Origin: Fibrobacter succinogenes subsp. succinogenes S85
GTDB lineage: Bacteria > Fibrobacterota > Fibrobacteria > Fibrobacterales > Fibrobacteraceae
DNA: 32,000 bases
NCBI RefSeq assembly: GCF_000146505.1
Contig: NC_017448.1
Span: forward strand, 1,170,001-1,202,000
Direction: 5' to 3'
The notes under the pieces are model-generated. The model saw only the letters and a list, made by a program, of their open reading frames with translations, was not told the origin of the DNA and ran no database searches. Numbering within the stretch: position 1 is the stretch's first letter; each line of letters begins with the position of its first letter. Below are positions 4,493 through 30,441 of this stretch, in pieces. Made by a program: the position numbers and the translations under genes.

Positions 4493-5530
4493 ATGAACAT
4501 TGACTTCAACCGTAGACTATCCATCGCTCCGATGCTTGACTGCACGGACCGCCACGAACGTTATTTCTTGCGTTTGCTTTCCAAGCACATTCTGCTTTAC
4601 AGCGAGATGGTCGTCTCTACGGGGCTTCTGCATTGCGAAAACAAGGACTTGTTCCTCGGACACGAACCGTTTGAACACCCGGCTGTGTTGCAGCTCGGCG
4701 GTAGCAATCCGGCGGATCTTGCCTCGGCCTCAAAGCTCGTGGAAGCGGCTGGCTTTAGCGAAGTCAACTTGAATTGCGGTTGCCCTTCGGACCGTGTGCA
4801 GAACGGGAACTTTGGCGCGTGCCTCATGAAAGAGAAGAACGTTGTCGCCGATTGCTTCAAGGCGATGCAGGACGCCGTTTCAATTCCTGTTTCTATCAAG
4901 TGCCGCATTGGGGTCGATGACCTGGACAGCTGGGAATTTTTCACAGATTTCATCCAGACCGTGCGTGATGCAGGCTGCAAAATTTTCATCGTGCATGCGC
5001 GCAAAGCTTGGCTCAAGGGACTCTCGCCTAAGGAGAACCGCGAAGTGCCGCCGCTCCATTACGAGTTCGTCCACCGCCTCAAGGCGGAGATGCCGGAGCT
5101 GAACTTGAGCATCAACGGAGGCATCAAGACGCTCGACCAAATTGAAGAACAGCTGAAAGATTTGGACGGCGTGATGGTCGGTCGCGAAGCCTACGAGAAT
5201 CCGTGGTTCCTGCACGATGCCGATGCAAGAATCTTCGGGGATGTCCGCCCAGAAAGCAACGACCCGGCTGAGATTATTGCCGGAAACGCTCGCCCCGCCA
5301 CAAGAAAGGCGCTCCTCGAAGCCTACCTCCCCTACGTCGAGAAGCAGACTGCCGAAGGCTGCCCCGCGACGATTCTCGTGAAGCACCTCTACGGGCTTTT
5401 TGCAGGACTCCCGGGCGCCCGCAAATTCCGCGCCACGCTCAGCAACGAGAGCCCCCGCGCCCACCTTTACGGAGGTGCCGCCGCCCTCATCCGAAAAGCG
5501 ATGGAACTCGTTGGTGAGACTAGAGACTAG
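4493..5530 (+). CDS. dusA: tRNA-dihydrouridine synthase A
   Basis: 345-aa ORF. The N-terminus RLSIAPMLDCTDRHERYFLRLLS, the motif NLNCGCPSDRVQNGNFGACLM and the overall length are typical of DusA. Confidence 0.9.
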   Translation: MNIDFNRRLSIAPMLDCTDRHERYFLRLLSKHILLYSEMVVSTGLLHCENKDLFLGHEPFEHPAVLQLGGSNPADLASASKLVEAAGFSEVNLNCGCPSDRVQNGNFGACLMKEKNVVADCFKAMQDAVSIPVSIKCRIGVDDLDSWEFFTDFIQTVRDAGCKIFIVHARKAWLKGLSPKENREVPPLHYEFVHRLKAEMPELNLSINGGIKTLDQIEEQLKDLDGVMVGREAYENPWFLHDADARIFGDVRPESNDPAEIIAGNARPATRKALLEAYLPYVEKQTAEGCPATILVKHLYGLFAGLPGARKFRATLSNESPRAHLYGGAAALIRKAMELVGETRD

Positions 5531-5550
5531 AGACGAGAGAAGAGAGAAAA
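5516..5550. repeat. Five tandem degenerate heptamers spanning the dusA stop codon
   Basis: The sequence reads GAGACTA GAGACTA GAGACGA GAGAAGA GAGAAAA. TAG occurs at two unit junctions (5521 out of frame; 5528 is the dusA stop). Confidence 0.7.
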
Positions 5551-5567
5551 CAAGCAATCTCTCGTCT
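5531..5567 (+). terminator. Perfect 10-bp hairpin immediately after dusA
   Basis: AGACGAGAGA (5531-5540) pairs with TCTCTCGTCT (5558-5567) across a 17-nt loop. TTCGTCT follows, so the U-tract is poor. Confidence 0.4.
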
Positions 5568-5622
5568 TTCGTCTGTAGCCCCCAAAGCGGGCGTTCTTTC
5601 GTCTAAAATTCTTCCCTACCCC

Positions 5623-5651
5623 TTGACAAGCGAATAAAATTTTTCTCTATT
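5623..5651 (+). promoter_or_regulatory. Candidate sigma70-like promoter for the small basic ORF
   Basis: TTGACA at 5623-5628, a 17-nt spacer, then TCTATT at 5646-5651 (4 of 6 matches to TATAAT). Confidence 0.25.
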
Positions 5652-5693
5652 TGGTGGCGTATTTTTAAGTTTAACCTTTAACGGAGATACAAC

Positions 5694-5789
5694 ATGCCTT
5701 GCGGAAAGAAAAGAAAGCGCAGGAAGATTGCGACTCACAAGCGTAAGAAGCGCCGTCGTCGTGACCGTCACAAAAAGAAACTTCGCTAA
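5694..5789 (+). CDS. Small, highly basic protein (31 aa), absent from the ORF track
   Basis: The ORF runs from ATG at 5694 to TAA at 5787-5789 and encodes MPCGKKRKRRKIATHKRKKRRRRDRHKKKLR (20 of 31 residues are K or R). GGAG lies ~9 nt upstream and a hairpin with T-run follows. It resembles the ~30-aa basic proteins annotated in FCB-group genomes as AURKAIP1/COX24-domain proteins (from memory). Confidence 0.6.
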   Translation: MPCGKKRKRRKIATHKRKKRRRRDRHKKKLR

Positions 5790-5825
5790 TATCCGTTAGC
5801 ATTTTCTTGTGATTTCCTGTAAAAG

Positions 5826-12646: not shown

Positions 12647-13519
12647 ATGAAAAAGATAGCATTCCAGGGCCGTCGCGGGGCCTATAGCGAAAGTGCCGCC
12701 TACCACCTGTTCGGAAACGATATCGAAGTCGTGCCGATGGACACGTTCGAACAAATTTTCCAGGGCATTGAAACAGGTGTCGTTGACGGAGGCGCCATCC
12801 CTATAGAAAACTCGACCGCGGGTTCCATTTACGACAACTACGACTTGCTTTACAAGTGGCGCCATCCGATTGTCGCCGAAGTCAAGTTGCAGATTGAACA
12901 TACGCTCTGCGCATTGCCGGGCACAAAGCTCGAAGACCTTACCGAAGTCCTGAGCCACCCGCAGGGACTCGCCCAGTGCAGCCGCTTTTTCGGACAGCAC
13001 CCGAACATCAAGAGCACCGCATTTTACGATACCGCAGGCAGCGCCGAAGAAATCGCGAAGCGCGGCGACAAGCACATCGGTGCAATCGCAAGCGCATACG
13101 CTGCCAAGTTCTACGGTCTTGACATTTTAAAGCAAGGGCTCGAAAATTTGCCGGGCGTAAACTTCACGCGTTTTTACGCCATCCAGAAGACCGCAATTGA
13201 GCTGCCGGACTTCAAGGCAAACGAAACCGTCAAGCCGCCTATCAAGACGACGCTCCTTTTGATGTTGAGCGATTCCAGCAAGTCTGGCGCTTTGTACGAA
13301 GCGCTCGGTTGCTTTGCCAAGCGTAAGCTGAACCTCACGCGCATTGAGAGCCGCCCGCATCCGGACCGTCCGTGGGAATACATTTTCCACCTTTCGTTCG
13401 AAGGCAATCCGAAGGACCCGAATGTCGTTGAAGCGCTCAAAGAATTGCAGCAGTACACCGACTTCATTTATCGCCTCGGAAGCTTCCGCGAAGGAACAAC
13501 GGAGAAACTTTCTTATTAG
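12647..13519 (+). CDS. pheA: Prephenate dehydratase (PDT plus ACT domains)
   Basis: 290-aa ORF with KIAFQGRRGAYSE at the N-terminus, the IENSTAGSI motif, and TRIESRP in the ACT region. There is no chorismate mutase domain. Confidence 0.9.
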   Translation: MKKIAFQGRRGAYSESAAYHLFGNDIEVVPMDTFEQIFQGIETGVVDGGAIPIENSTAGSIYDNYDLLYKWRHPIVAEVKLQIEHTLCALPGTKLEDLTEVLSHPQGLAQCSRFFGQHPNIKSTAFYDTAGSAEEIAKRGDKHIGAIASAYAAKFYGLDILKQGLENLPGVNFTRFYAIQKTAIELPDFKANETVKPPIKTTLLLMLSDSSKSGALYEALGCFAKRKLNLTRIESRPHPDRPWEYIFHLSFEGNPKDPNVVEALKELQQYTDFIYRLGSFREGTTEKLSY

Positions 13520-13561
13520 ACGAAAGACCAAAGCTAACCACTAACCACTGTTTACTAACCA
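13517..13561. repeat. Heptamer array filling the pheA-rph spacer
   Basis: The sequence reads TAGACGA AAGACCA AAG CTAACCA CTAACCA CTGTTTA CTAACCA, then CC-ATG (rph). The reverse complement reads ...TAGTGGT TAGTGGT... Confidence 0.65.
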
Positions 13562-13563
13562 CC

Positions 13564-14289
13564 ATGTCCTACACACGCACAGACCGCAAACCTGAAGAAT
13601 TTCGCAATCTCAAGATGACCACGGGCTTTATCTCTAGCGCCGATGGTTCCGTACTCATTGAAATGGGACGCACCCGCGTCATCTGCAACGCAACGCTCCT
13701 CCCGAAAGTTCCGGACTGGCTTGCCGGTCGCGGCACGGGCTGGATCACGGCTGAATACAGCCTGCTCCCGCAAAGCACGGGCAAGCGCGTGGAACGCGAG
13801 CGCAAGGGCGCGAGCGGTCGCACTCAGGAAATCCAGCGCTTGGTGGGCCGTTCGCTGCGCGGCGCAGCTGATCTCGCCGCACTCGGCGAGAACGCCATCG
13901 TCGTGGACTGCGATGTGATTGAAGCCGATGGCGGCACGCGAACGGCTAGCATTATCGGTGGCTTTGTCGCACTCGCGATTGCAGTGAAGAAAATCAAGGA
14001 ACGCCTCGGCATCACGCAACAAATTCTTAAACACGGCATTACAGCAATTTCCGTGGGCGTCGTTGACGGCAATCCGCTTTGCGACCTCTGCTATGTCGAA
14101 GACTCTGCCGCCGACGTTGATATGAACGTCGTCATGCAAGATGCCAAGAACTTCATCGAAGTGCAAGGCACGGGCGAACACGCCAGCTTTGACCGCGCCA
14201 TGCTCAACACGCTCCTCGATCTCGGCGAAAACGCCTGCAAGGAAATCTACAAGAAGCAGATGGAATTGATTGGCGGTGAACTGCCGTAA
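13564..14289 (+). CDS. rph: Ribonuclease PH
   Basis: 241-aa ORF with DGSVLIEMGRTRVICNA, GRTQEIQRLVGRSLR and DCDVIEADGGTRTASI, all typical of RNase PH. Confidence 0.92.
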   Translation: MSYTRTDRKPEEFRNLKMTTGFISSADGSVLIEMGRTRVICNATLLPKVPDWLAGRGTGWITAEYSLLPQSTGKRVERERKGASGRTQEIQRLVGRSLRGAADLAALGENAIVVDCDVIEADGGTRTASIIGGFVALAIAVKKIKERLGITQQILKHGITAISVGVVDGNPLCDLCYVEDSAADVDMNVVMQDAKNFIEVQGTGEHASFDRAMLNTLLDLGENACKEIYKKQMELIGGELP

Positions 14290-14301
14290 TTTAGAGAGAA
14301 G

Positions 14302-14322
14302 ATGGCGGATCTAGTCCGCCAT
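14302..14322. terminator. Hairpin 1 in the convergent rph/lipoprotein spacer
   Basis: ATGGCGGA-TCTAG-TCCGCCAT, a perfect 8-bp stem with no clear U-tract. Confidence 0.35.
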
Positions 14323-14340
14323 GGCGTTGCCCAGTTGGCG

Positions 14341-21787: not shown

Positions 21788-22306
21788 ATGTTACTTAAGC
21801 GCCTCGTCACAATATTTTTCTTGATTTTTTGCACCGGGAACGTACTAGCCAAGGATTCTCCCGAGAAATCGCCATGGACGTTTGAGGCGGGTATTTCGGC
21901 TGGGCGCCCTACCCCGATCATGCTGAATGCGGGGGTCGGCTACAAGAACATCTTTTTCAGAGCGATGGGTGGCGGCATGTACTTTGGCACCGACGATTTC
22001 TGGGTCGGGTTCCGTGGCGGTTTTGCCTGGGAATTTTTCCGCGAACTGCCGTTTACGCTAGACCTTGGAATTGGGAGCGGATACGCGTTTGCCAAGGCGC
22101 CCAACGGATATCTCAAGGCATTGAACAGGGCTAACGGAGAGCGCATGGTGCGCTCGTACAACTATAAGGAAGCGCTTGACATTTCTCCCGAAATACGAGC
22201 AAGCATCTACGGGATATTTACCTACATCGCAATTCCGGTACACTGCTTTATGAAACACGATGAACCGACAGTTCTCTGGCAAGTCGGGTATGCATATAGG
22301 TTCTGA
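21788..22306 (+). CDS. Small secreted/outer-membrane protein, function unknown
   Basis: 172-aa ORF with a signal peptide (...GNVLA/KD), a Gly/aromatic-rich sequence, and a C-terminal YAYRF beta-signal-like end. Confidence 0.5.
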   Translation: MLLKRLVTIFFLIFCTGNVLAKDSPEKSPWTFEAGISAGRPTPIMLNAGVGYKNIFFRAMGGGMYFGTDDFWVGFRGGFAWEFFRELPFTLDLGIGSGYAFAKAPNGYLKALNRANGERMVRSYNYKEALDISPEIRASIYGIFTYIAIPVHCFMKHDEPTVLWQVGYAYRF

Positions 22307-22379
22307 TTAGACGAGAGAATTCTGAGATGTCCGAAATGTCTCTACATTAATTTATCACAAGCAATTATTTATCAATCGT

Positions 22380-28147: not shown

Positions 28148-29965
28148 TTACAAGGAATACGATGTCGTCACAGAGTAATGGGGTTTGCCTTTAAGTACAC
28201 CGTTCAGCGGGAAACTCACGTCAATCTTGTTGATCAAGCGAGTGATAGACTTTGTCTGAGCCAAACGGATGCCAAAGCCAGCCACATAAATCAAATCCTT
28301 ACGCCTAATATCCTTGATCGTCGGGGCCGTTTCGCCGACACTACCAAAAGCGACTACAACAGGCGCTAATGTCAAAATTTCAAAATCAGGGAACCAGCGC
28401 TGTTCCAAATTGCCATAAATGCGAGCTTGCCCGGCGTAAAAACCGGTCGGGAATCCGAAACCATCAGAATCGCCAAGCGTCAACTGGTAGCCTAGTTTAG
28501 CGTCATCATACAAATCCACAAGTCCCGACAAAGCCGTAGAAAAACGCATACTCGGGTGGAAAATGTACTCGCCATTTAAACGGCCATAAAAATCACGACG
28601 CTTTCCATGGTCCAAATAAAAATACATATACGACTTCAAAGTCAAATGATGATTTAAGTGGCCAAGGTAAAGGTCCGTCCAGAAGTCCAAACGGATGTCG
28701 TTATTGTCGGAGCCAAGTTGTTCGTAATTTTTAGAAAGCTGAGCCTTAACGGAGAATCCCTTATCAATATCTTCAGTCCACCTGACGTTGTGGAAATTCT
28801 TGATTTTTTCGTAACGCAAGTTAGAGTACATGATATAAAAACCAAGGCGGGAATCCTTGCGTTCCTGAGTCCATTCGTTCACAGCGCTTGCAGAATCCAC
28901 CGCATACACGTCGTCACCATACATGAACGCATAAGGCAATACTCGACCTTCATTTGCAGTTTCACGCAAGTAATCATAGGTCGCGCCCAAGTAGATTTTG
29001 CGTTGCGTTCCACCAAACGAGCGGCTGAATCGGAGGCTCAAGGAATCAGTAATATAATCCTCAATGGCCATCACCTTCACAGATTTTTTCCCATTGTAAC
29101 GAGATAAGGAATTGAGGTATTTATCCGTTGCAATCGAATCGATTTGGCGGTCGCTCTTTTTCTTATTGTCCAGATCCTTACGGGCAATTTCTAATTGTTT
29201 GAGGAAAGCCTTATTTTGTGTATAATCATAAATTTTTGCGCCCGACGGGAGCTCGCCGCGACCATAATAAAAGACATTACGCTTGTTCTTCAAACCCTCA
29301 AGTGTGTACGCCCACTGGTTCACGCTACGGCTGAGGAACGGCACGTACATTTTCCAGCTCGCCAAGTAACCATCCGTATTGTAGCTGTACAAAAGGTCTA
29401 AATGGTTGTAGCGGAAAAGGAAATGCGGGTCGCCATATTCCAACTGCCACATATCGCGGAATTGATCATGTCCAAAGTAAAAACCGAGCTTTTGGCCAAG
29501 CCCAAGGAAATTGCTTTCTTGAACACCTATACCCCAAACGAGATTGTCGTAGCTCCACTCACTTCCCGAAAAACCTAAAGCAAAAGGAATCGTAAGAGTC
29601 CAGTTATCGCTCGTCTGGACCGTCACGACTTTTTTGCCTTCTTCGTCGGCAACGGAAATACTGGCGTCAGAAAGGAATTTCTGATCGCGCAAAAAACGTT
29701 CCGATTCCAAAAGCAAGTTCAAGTTGACGAGGTCGCCTTTGTCAAAAAGCAGAAGCTTACTCACCGTCGATTCGCGGGTTTCGATATGCACCCAGTTCAG
29801 AATGTCATACGCCCACCGGTCGTACTTCGTATGCGCCTTGGAATCGTCAAAGGCATCGCCAATATTGTAGCGGATTTCGTCCACACGGAAAACGGCATTA
29901 GAATCAACCACATCGGCAAAGGATGCGGCCGCAAAACTCAACAAACAAAATATTAATTTTTTCAC
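28148..29965 (-). CDS. Omp85/BamA-family outer-membrane protein with a single POTRA-like region
   Basis: The motif ESNFLGLGQKLGFYFG follows a POTRA-like segment (TRESTVSKLLLFDKGDLVNLNLLLESERFLRD...VTVQTSDNW), and a long beta-rich C-terminal part comes after. The track start at 29980 is a TTG. A GTG at 29965 gives a clean signal peptide, (M)KKLIFCLLSFAAASFA. Confidence 0.6.
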   Translation of the reverse strand: MKKLIFCLLSFAAASFADVVDSNAVFRVDEIRYNIGDAFDDSKAHTKYDRWAYDILNWVHIETRESTVSKLLLFDKGDLVNLNLLLESERFLRDQKFLSDASISVADEEGKKVVTVQTSDNWTLTIPFALGFSGSEWSYDNLVWGIGVQESNFLGLGQKLGFYFGHDQFRDMWQLEYGDPHFLFRYNHLDLLYSYNTDGYLASWKMYVPFLSRSVNQWAYTLEGLKNKRNVFYYGRGELPSGAKIYDYTQNKAFLKQLEIARKDLDNKKKSDRQIDSIATDKYLNSLSRYNGKKSVKVMAIEDYITDSLSLRFSRSFGGTQRKIYLGATYDYLRETANEGRVLPYAFMYGDDVYAVDSASAVNEWTQERKDSRLGFYIMYSNLRYEKIKNFHNVRWTEDIDKGFSVKAQLSKNYEQLGSDNNDIRLDFWTDLYLGHLNHHLTLKSYMYFYLDHGKRRDFYGRLNGEYIFHPSMRFSTALSGLVDLYDDAKLGYQLTLGDSDGFGFPTGFYAGQARIYGNLEQRWFPDFEILTLAPVVVAFGSVGETAPTIKDIRRKDLIYVAGFGIRLAQTKSITRLINKIDVSFPLNGVLKGKPHYSVTTSYSL

Positions 29966-30034
29966 GGCAAGAATATACAATTTTAGACGAGAGGAAAAAA
30001 GATGAAAGACGAGAGATATCGTCTATTTCTATAC

Positions 30035-30063
30035 TTGCACATTCACGATGCTTTTTCTACATT
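30035..30063 (+). promoter_or_regulatory. Candidate promoter of rnpB
   Basis: TTGCAC (30035-30040), a 17-nt spacer, then TACATT (30058-30063). This places the predicted start ~7 nt downstream, at the inferred 5' end of P1. Confidence 0.4.
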
Positions 30064-30070
30064 TCGCCAC

Positions 30071-30436
30071 GAGTGGCGGATGGCCGCCGGCAGCGAGCAA
30101 TCAAAGCTGGAGGAAAGTCCGGGCACCGCAGGGCAAGATGCTGGATAACGTCCAGGCGCGGTAACGCGACAGAAAGTGCAGCAGAGAATAGACCGCCCGC
30201 AGCAATGCGGGTAAGGGTGAAACGGCGAGGTAAGAGCTCACCGCGCTCCTGGTGACAGGAGTGGCATGGTAAACCTCATCCGGTGCAAGACCAAGCAGGA
30301 TTCCGTTCGAAAGAACCTGGTGCGGCCCGTGCCAGCTGGATATCCGGGTAGGTCGCTTGAGGCGGTCGGTAACGATTCGTCCAGAGAGATGGTCATCGCT
30401 TCGCAAGAAGTACAGAACCCGGCTTATAACTACTCT
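30071..30436 (+). ncRNA. rnpB: RNase P RNA, bacterial type A
   Basis: The universal blocks are present: GGAGGAAAGTCCGGGC, AGGGTGAAACGGCGAGGTAAGAGCTCACC, GGTAAACCTCATCCGGTGCAAG, GGGTAGGTCGCTTGAGG and ACAGAACCCGGCTTA. P1 pairs GAGTGG (30071) with CTACTC (30430-30435). The ends are approximate, within about 5 nt. Confidence 0.92.
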
Positions 30437-30441
30437 ACTAT

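Follow-up and report, generated by a model that had tools for sequence, protein, structure and literature searches.

We analysed 32,000 nucleotides of Fibrobacter succinogenes subsp. succinogenes S85 (assembly GCF_000146505.1, contig NC_017448.1, positions 1,170,001 to 1,202,000 of the forward strand; this whole stretch is called the window below), in which an element of inverted seven-nucleotide repeats (5516-5607) overlaps the end of dusA. The upstream open reading frame (ORF; 4493-5530) belongs to the Dus family (Pfam Dus, E 1.5e-73). As a preliminary description of this DNA had noted, five heptamers run across its TAG stop (5528-5530), namely GAGACTA (5516-5522), GAGACTA (5523-5529), GAGACGA (5530-5536), GAGAAGA (5537-5543) and GAGAAAA (5544-5550), and this purine arm supplies the last four codons and the stop of the gene. 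The 10-nt pairing described there is exact, AGACGAGAGA (5531-5540) being the complement of TCTCTCGTCT (5558-5567), and the two further minus-strand copies of the word AGACGARAG (R, purine) do lie at 5566-5574 and 5596-5604. The locus is composed of the following features:

5516-5550, plus strand: purine arm of five heptamers (direct reading of the letters and array detection)
5551-5557, plus strand: short loop; a full cassette elsewhere in the genome (3717607-3718061) has a four-helix-bundle gene at the matching place (fold and comparison)
5558-5574, plus strand: inner pyrimidine arm TCTCTCGTCTTTCGTCT, which pairs with 5530-5548 (fold and alignment to the left arm of the cassette)
5575-5592, plus strand: GTA and a GC mini-hairpin, GCCCCC-AAA-GCGGGC, the variable hairpin of the hairpin module, or 'B module'
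5593-5607, plus strand: terminal unit GTTCTTTCGTCTAAA (TTTAGACGAAAGAAC on the opposite strand), the conserved end of the element (fold, module comparison and alignment)
5623-5653, plus strand: predicted promoter-like TTGACA-N19-TATTTG of a downstream 31-codon basic ORF at 5695-5790 (orthologous spacers)

The element is predicted to fold at -38.8 kcal/mol (z -3.4), with 5516-5550 pairing with 5558-5574 and 5600-5604. In this predicted fold the terminal unit pairs with an outer heptamer of the purine arm, giving a three-way junction.

The AGACGARAG word is a piece of heptamer arrays

All eight copies of AGACGARAG that had been counted in the window are present, the four outside the dusA element at 13518, 22309, 29985 and 30007. 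The earlier expectation was about 0.5 copies; 100 dinucleotide shuffles of the window gave a mean of 0.57 and a maximum of 3. In the genome, searched as one contig of 3,843,004 bp, the word occurs 529 times against roughly 60-100 expected from Markov backgrounds of order 1-5, and this wide spread bears out the proposal of a dispersed short element. With gene calls from a rough home-made caller (2,906 genes), 309 copies fall in the non-coding 12% of the genome (67 per 100 kb, versus 6.5 in coding DNA). The intergenic enrichment is thereby upheld, whereas the picture of a word lying outside genes was too strict: 220 copies are inside gene calls, some of them perhaps through in-frame insertion or an ORF called too long.

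Alignment of the flanks of all 529 copies brings out a period of 7, which identifies the 9-mer as part of (AGACGAR)n. At period 7 there are 48 perfect tandem repeats with three or more units, compared with 0-2 at each of periods 5, 6 and 8-12, and several heptamer families are present in the genome (AGACGAR, AACTTAG, CTAACCA, AAGTAGG and others). Heptanucleotide tandem repeats have been reported since 1990, beginning with the short tandemly repeated repetitive (STRR) sequences of cyanobacteria, and are over-represented in many bacteria; we know of no cause or function established for them.

The AGACGAR repeats form two modules. One is a discrete array of about 4.4 units, with 4 units in 59 cases, 3 in 23 and 5 in 5 (87 arrays) and with common ends, TT-AGACGA...AGACGA-RAGA. 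The other is a hairpin module, which reads TTAGACGARAGAAC-[variable GC mini-hairpin]-CTAC-(AGACGAR)2-3 in purine orientation and (CTYTCGTCT)1-3-GTAG-[5-6 bp GC hairpin, 3-4 nt loop]-GTTCTYTCGTCTAA in pyrimidine orientation (Y, pyrimidine). At least 52 strict copies of it occur genome-wide; their mini-hairpins comprise at least 12 different stems, all self-complementary, with a mean minimum free energy of -6.7 kcal/mol compared with -2.8 for shuffles. Window positions 5558-5607 are one hairpin module, and the purine array at 5516-5550 pairs with that module in the fold.

AGACGAR arrays also occur inside ORF calls (33 arrays, 18 sense and 15 antisense, e.g. at genome 218782, 343538, 1366078 and 3191218). 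The unit is free of stop codons in every frame on both strands, and some of these arrays may be in-frame insertions, others over-extended ORF calls.

Both modules are placed with polarity at gene boundaries

Among the 48 intergenic hairpin modules, 32 abut a stop codon at -3 to +6 nt, their purine strand being the sense strand; random placement gives 3.0, and at most 10 in 2,000 trials. The relation to stop codons that had been proposed earlier therefore stands, and it is oriented. A second preferred position, missed by the preliminary description, is directly upstream of the predicted promoter boxes of leaderless genes: a TAnnTT box lies 3-9 nt past the pyrimidine 3' end at 23/87 arrays (4.6% expected, p 6e-12) and at the opposite end of only 3/87, and in 12 of the 23 the box is followed, 4-7 nt on, by an ATG that opens a long ORF. 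Neighbouring AGACGAR arrays of opposite orientation are convergent in 18 cases (purine, then pyrimidine) and divergent in none, and the other heptamer families give 6 convergent and 0 divergent pairs, with the TAG arm first. The 9-mer as a whole has no strand bias relative to transcription (98 sense, 111 antisense); the polarity is visible only once the two modules are separated. A gene-boundary rule can be drawn from this: hairpin modules hug stop codons, and arrays end 6 nt before the predicted TAnnTTTG boxes of leaderless genes. What the preliminary description saw, a dispersed element with a relation to stops, was correct as far as it went; that its word is a piece of tandem arrays, of two modules and of cassette arms (see below) had escaped it.

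Boxes of this kind are common in the genome. About 227 genes have a TAnnTTT[GA] box 3-8 nt before the ATG (peak 4-5 nt), preceded by an AT-rich stretch and a C and with no -35 consensus; the window has examples at 29963-29978 (minus strand) and 30029-30036 (plus strand, before rnpB). These boxes suggest, from their sequence and spacing, that Fibrobacter has many leaderless mRNAs with a Bacteroidetes-like -7 promoter. A promoter of the extracytoplasmic function (ECF) type (GAAC...CGTC), or the array serving as a -35 element, was considered and rejected, as no -35-like consensus is found in the 227 leaderless-type promoters and the array words misfit.

One explanation for such placement is a cis element selected by the host independently of any cassette, which might insulate or terminate in both directions, act upstream of a promoter, or dock an oligomeric RNA-binding protein of the TRAP/HutP type that reads a NAG triplet every 7 nt. 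It would account for the tight placement at gene boundaries, for the hairpin followed by GUUCUUUCGUCU in one orientation, and for the variable first base, which makes the triplets NAG (N is G, A or T, seldom C). Against it, genomes with 90-100% identical flanks differ by the gain, loss or replacement of sites, the overall 9-mer lacks strand bias, and no NAG-reading binding protein has been identified; we consider this explanation unlikely.

A plain slipped-strand microsatellite, that is, neutral heptanucleotide simple sequence repeats (SSRs; STRR or LSSR type) growing and shrinking by polymerase slippage in intergenic space, is less likely still. The units are tandem and near-identical, the dusA locus of the relative G002 differs from that of S85 by a one-unit register shift, long pure (AGACGAG)n tracts exist in Sorangium, Gemmatimonadota and Nitrospirota, and a passage of PMC4692102 cites an excess of heptamer SSRs as known in bacteria. 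Slippage sits poorly with array lengths that peak sharply at 4 units without decay, the fixed ends (TTAGACGA...), the strict polarity to stops and promoters, the exclusively convergent pairs, and the identical 4-unit element in another phylum (see below). The array at window 29983-30016 and its intact orthologue in G006 both have 4 units, and they have diverged by substitutions.

The dusA element matches a PF05635 cassette without its gene

S85 has one PF05635 gene (E 2.9e-36; genome 3717676-3718029), which also matches TIGR02436, 'four helix bundle protein' (E 5e-37). It belongs to a cassette (genome 3717607-3718061) wedged between the lysS stop and the lolE ATG, with the sequence ...GTTTAG-ACGAGAGAAC-GTCGCTTCGCGGC-TAC-AGACGAGAGACGAAAGAAC...ATG[117 codons]TAA-TCTC(TCGTCTC)3TCGTCT-ATG. 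The layout is upstream stop, TTAGACGAGAGAAC, GC mini-hairpin, CTAC(AGACGAR)2.5, the PF05635/TIGR02436 gene, (TCTCGTC)4.4 and downstream ATG. The left arm of the cassette is a hairpin module and the right arm is a 4.4-unit array. The genome-wide polarity matches this arrangement, in which a stop codon precedes the left arm and a gene start comes after the right arm. We assign the genome-wide AGACGAR repeat family and both of its modules to the arms of this resident cassette, which links the repeats to one gene family.

The dusA element, when reverse-complemented, aligns with the left arm of the cassette except for the hairpin, and its purine array stands in for the right arm, which makes it a cassette without its gene. 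The purine arm (5516-5550), once reverse-complemented, corresponds to the 3' arm of the complete cassette and has the same build as the AGACGAG x4.4 arm beside the PF05635 gene. Both share the order unit - AGAAC - hairpin - CTAC - units, with an opposite arm of 4-5 units. Compared with PF05635 cassettes of the type known from 23S rRNA intervening sequences (IVS), the dusA element has the two pairable inverted arms of tandem heptamers, and these are homologous, by alignment, to those of the gene-bearing copy; between them is merely a loop of 7-10 nt. Since no gene lies between the arms in the window, the dusA copy is a gene-less derivative and not a full member.

Protein type and heptamer are linked across genomes

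PF05635 genes, one to four per genome, are found in 27/40 further Fibrobacter genomes. At 29/30 inspected Fibrobacter loci the gene lies between inverted heptamer arrays, each protein type with its own heptamer. A detector of repeats at lag 7 found at least one arm at 46/56 genes and gave 4.4 units for the AGACGAG-type 3' arm in 14/16 cases. Among pairs of proteins, which are not independent of one another, the heptamer is shared in 80/80 at an identity of at least 75%, in 43/63 at 55-75% (38 at different loci), in 1/210 at 40-55% (67 pairs at the same locus) and in 0/208 below 40%. In these sequence comparisons the heptamer follows the protein type and not the locus, with gene and arms travelling together. 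At the lysS-lolE junction, at least three cassette types are found in different genomes.

Two junctions act as hot spots among the inspected loci (L180-L209): lysS-lolE, and one between ...KNIEADTQMRKEIG and MEGLLILIG..., hold different cassettes and heptamers in different genomes. In most hot-spot cassettes the 5' arm is separated from the upstream stop codon by a GC mini-hairpin whose loop is GAA or GNA.

The linkage extends to other phyla. A Rikenellaceae metagenome-assembled genome (MAG; GCA_015060075.1) encodes a 69%-identical protein between (AGACGAG)4AGA and (TCGTCTY)4 at a different locus, between rseC-like and rnfB-like genes. The AGACGAG 4-unit element is present at at least 13 loci of gut Alistipes and Rikenellaceae MAGs; in the Alistipes genomes G053-G057, examined for an AGACGAR-armed gene, the PF05635 genes have other heptamers. 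In Xanthomonas citri and X. campestris, a four-helix-bundle gene of the XCC0516 type lies between the accB stop and the accC ATG, flanked by GGGAATC GGGAGTG GAGAATG GGGAATC and an inverse array. Armed PF05635 genes also occur in Microcoleus, Leeuwenhoekiella, a Nitrospirota MAG and Sorangium.

The repeat load of a Fibrobacter genome varies with the gene: the median number of array windows is 62 with an AGACGAG-type gene versus 8 without (Mann-Whitney p 4e-5, uncorrected for kinship). G011 has a related protein with a different heptamer and no AGACGAR arrays.

Elements turn over between close relatives

At orthologous sites in close relatives, flanks are 90-100% identical and the elements are present, absent, shortened or swapped for other heptamer families. 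At the dusA site, G002 has the composite seen in S85, shifted by one unit in register, G007 has a hairpin module at an unchanged distance from the conserved TTGACA promoter, and G018 and G006 lack the element. The predicted TTGACA-N19-TATTTG promoter, which begins 16 nt past the element, is kept across Fibrobacter species while the upstream element is present, absent or replaced. In these alignments the cassette and its empty copies turn over quickly between close relatives.

Such presence/absence polymorphism would also be expected of a selfish repeat resembling repetitive extragenic palindromes and bacterial interspersed mosaic elements (REP/BIME) or miniature inverted-repeat transposable elements (MITE), moved by a REP-associated tyrosine transposase (RAYT) or another transposase unrelated to the four-helix-bundle gene. 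The GTAG tag beside a GC palindrome, the position just past stop codons as in many REPs, the inverted dimers and one insertion with a 7-bp duplication (ATGACTA/ATGACTG) point the same way. Three results, and the exact agreement of the repeats with the PF05635 cassette arms, make this improbable. A search for the RAYT/Y1 transposase (PF01797) gave 0 matches in the 99.99%-complete genome, with positive controls in 6/14 genomes. The palindrome is not conserved, with at least 12 stems, though GTAG (or ATAG) is present. Exact 7-mer target duplications flank 2/52 hairpin modules, compared with 2.5 in shuffled pairings, which leaves no overall signal. Owing to this family-wide result we treat as anecdotal the ATGACTA/ATGACTG case, a hairpin module at genome 3571576 directly past a TAA stop and absent in G018, whose flanks are a possible 7-bp target duplication.

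Other sites in the window

Further sites related to the repeats lie elsewhere in the window:

13516-13528, plus strand: solo stub TTAGACGAAAGAC, whose TAG is the stop of prephenate dehydratase
13534-13562, plus strand: CTAACCA heptamer array of a different family, after the solo stub and before RNase PH
22307-22319, plus strand: solo stub TTAGACGAGAGAA, which comes directly past the stop of ORF 21788-22306; G002 and G018 have it unchanged
29983-30016, plus strand: decayed 4-unit array (TT AGACGAG AGGAAAA AAGATGA AAGACGAG AGA) between two divergent promoter boxes
30018-30036, plus strand: single inverted unit TCGTCT, then ATTTC and the box TATACTTG, upstream of rnpB

The other AGACGARAG sites of the window are probably solo or decayed arms of the IVS-type cassette. 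The gene names pheA and rph given earlier are valid at family level (prephenate dehydratase, 12647-13519; RNase PH, 13564-14289). Both the stub at 13516-13528 and the CTAACCA array at 13534-13562 are absent from the close relative G018. The four-helix-bundle cassette cognate to CTAACCA (KDLVVWQKAMDLSIA type) is present in another Fibrobacter genome (locus L184) and not in S85. After the RNase PH stop, 14290-14330 (plus strand) reads TTTAGAGAGAAGA followed by the hairpin TGGCGGA-TCTAG-TCCGCCA, possibly a decayed hairpin module; the equivalent position in G018 has unrelated sequence and a 9.5-kb insertion. Downstream of the array at 29983-30016, positions 30018-30036 show the junction 'unit - AWTTC - TAnnTTTG' seen at 23 arrays, and the RNase P RNA follows at 30070-30440. 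An Rfam scan of the window returned nothing apart from RNase P.

The 31-codon ORF downstream of the dusA element (5695-5790, plus strand; MPCGKKRKRRKIATHKRKKRRRRDRHKKKLR) is rich in Lys and Arg and has, besides its predicted promoter, a conserved leader. Its DNA is 74-85% conserved even in genomes from other families of the class, and it has no Pfam match.

A separate repeat family, (C)GTCATTCCCGC...GCGGGAATGAC / GTCATCCTGAG...GGATC, occurs, for example, around genome 46880, 844880 and 2374640 and in relatives (L003, L005). It resembles the NTS/SRM hairpins cut by Ssn GIY-YIG nucleases, for which the consensus is CGTCATTCCCGCG..GCGGGAAT (PMC11893778).

Proposed role of the element downstream of dusA

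From the anatomy of the element, its homology with the arms of the cassette, the polarity and the linkage of gene and arms, we consider it probable that 5516-5607 is a gene-less, hairpin-forming copy of an IVS-type cassette in reverse-complement orientation, with the mechanism proposed here being a role of its stem at the 3' end of the transcript, through RNase III or termination. In the dusA transcript, the two arms would form an imperfect ~22-bp stem from which the mini-hairpin branches off, and a U-rich tail would come next. By analogy with 23S rRNA intervening sequences, this stem might be cut by RNase III, stop transcription, or both. In this way it would set the 3' end of dusA and shield the promoter that follows, and the mini-hairpin would be left at the 3' end of the upstream RNA, protecting that end. 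Since RNase III cuts the stem of the Coxiella IVS and the S85 genome encodes an RNase III, we favour as plausible a role of the empty hairpin in 3'-end processing, termination or insulation.

It is possible, if doubtful, that pentameric S23p/PF05635 proteins recognise their own arrays as RNA or single-stranded DNA, with about one subunit per 7-nt unit and about five units per arm, and so maintain or spread the arms. The closest solved relatives are pentameric (PDB 2gsc and 2rld, 5 chains each), and the X. campestris homologue is a homopentameric toroid (PMC4990558). By analogy with these structures, arms of ~4.4-5 units suggest one subunit per heptamer.

Several points weigh against this overall interpretation. 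A simple terminator scan left 5578-5604 uncalled. An intrinsic (Rho-independent) terminator would have a GC stem with 5 or more pairs and then a run of T; in the local mini-hairpin only 4 pairs are clean, 5 of 8 letters in the tail GTTCTTTC are T, and many sister copies have perfect 5-bp stems. Gene-arm linkage alone would yield a correlation between protein and heptamer, so the correlation is no proof of recognition. The array-abundance comparison carries no correction for kinship. G018, G004 and G005 have no gene, and arrays are present in G018 (13 windows) and G005 (8) and not in G004; arrays therefore persist without the gene. G035 is likewise without the gene yet rich in arrays (107). Finally, RAYT being absent, no mobilising enzyme was found in S85, and the 7-mer flanks give no general sign of target duplication.

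By polarity and by comparison across phyla, this analysis traces one heptamer family to the arms of a cassette whose gene belongs to S23p, a pentameric, Avd-like family without assigned function. It joins two orphan observations in one testable hypothesis: does the protein bind its own heptamers, and are the stems RNase III sites? For annotation, it accounts for hundreds of odd intergenic and in-gene Fibrobacter repeats. If protein-array recognition is true, it would explain the heptanucleotide excess in bacteria, including STRR, GGGAATC, TAACTGA and the Fibrobacter families.

Comparison with known systems

The literature searched yielded no paper that connects heptanucleotide repeats to Fibrobacter and none that ties PF05635/TIGR02436 to dispersed heptamer repeats. 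What is added here is the assignment of a whole dispersed repeat family, with both of its modules, to a resident cassette as its arms, along with the polarity statistics, a protein type that Fibrobacter and Rikenellaceae share together with its heptamer, and the link to the Xanthomonas GGGAATC repeats.

Among the nearest known systems is the 23S rRNA IVS of Coxiella burnetii and Leptospira with its S23p ORF, in which a stem of ~28 bp is cut by RNase III (Warrier et al. 2016, PMC4990558). The Coxiella IVS has tandem heptamers (GACAGAT) in the arm before the ORF, in a unit number that varies among strains (PMC4990558). The Fibrobacter cassette shares with it the gene family (PF05635/S23p four-helix bundle) and the position of the gene between pairing inverted repeats. 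Unlike the rRNA IVS, the Fibrobacter element lies between protein-coding genes, its window copy is gene-less, its arms have multiplied to ~180 arrays and at least 52 hairpin modules per genome, and one arm has an extra variable mini-hairpin.

The GGGAATC / GGGGAYT repeats of Xanthomonas and Nostoc (Rehm et al. 2015, PMC4692102), which in each Xanthomonas genome form 70-75 convergent inverted pairs, and the cyanobacterial STRR resemble the Fibrobacter repeats as intergenic tandem heptamers whose length and sequence vary among close species. It is this published GGGAATC repeat that flanks the XCC0516-type gene between accB and accC. PMC4692102 interprets the GGGAATC-type repeats as sequences that form G-quadruplexes and mentions no gene that goes with them; the Fibrobacter AGACGAR unit, in contrast, cannot form a G-quadruplex.

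The Avd protein of diversity-generating retroelements (DGR) is a distant homologue: the S85 protein scores 29.6 bits against the NCBIfam Avd model, below the cut-off of 80 bits, and CDD groups Avd with the PF05635 family. No reverse transcriptase, template repeat or variable repeat adjoins the S85 gene, and the sole ORF with a reverse transcriptase domain is 1.67 Mb away.

The REP/BIME-RAYT (Di Nocera et al. 2013, PMC3733652) and NTS/SRM-Ssn (PMC11893778) systems share with Fibrobacter a repeat-gene-repeat master copy with many gene-less copies, a position downstream of coding regions, GTAG by a palindrome and, for Ssn, the co-variation of repeat and protein. They differ in that the Fibrobacter protein is a small helical bundle without known catalysis, with no RAYT, and in that its repeats are tandem heptamers and not one conserved palindrome. 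If the PF05635 protein does recognise its arrays, the two would form a pair comparable to RAYT-REP or Ssn-NTS.

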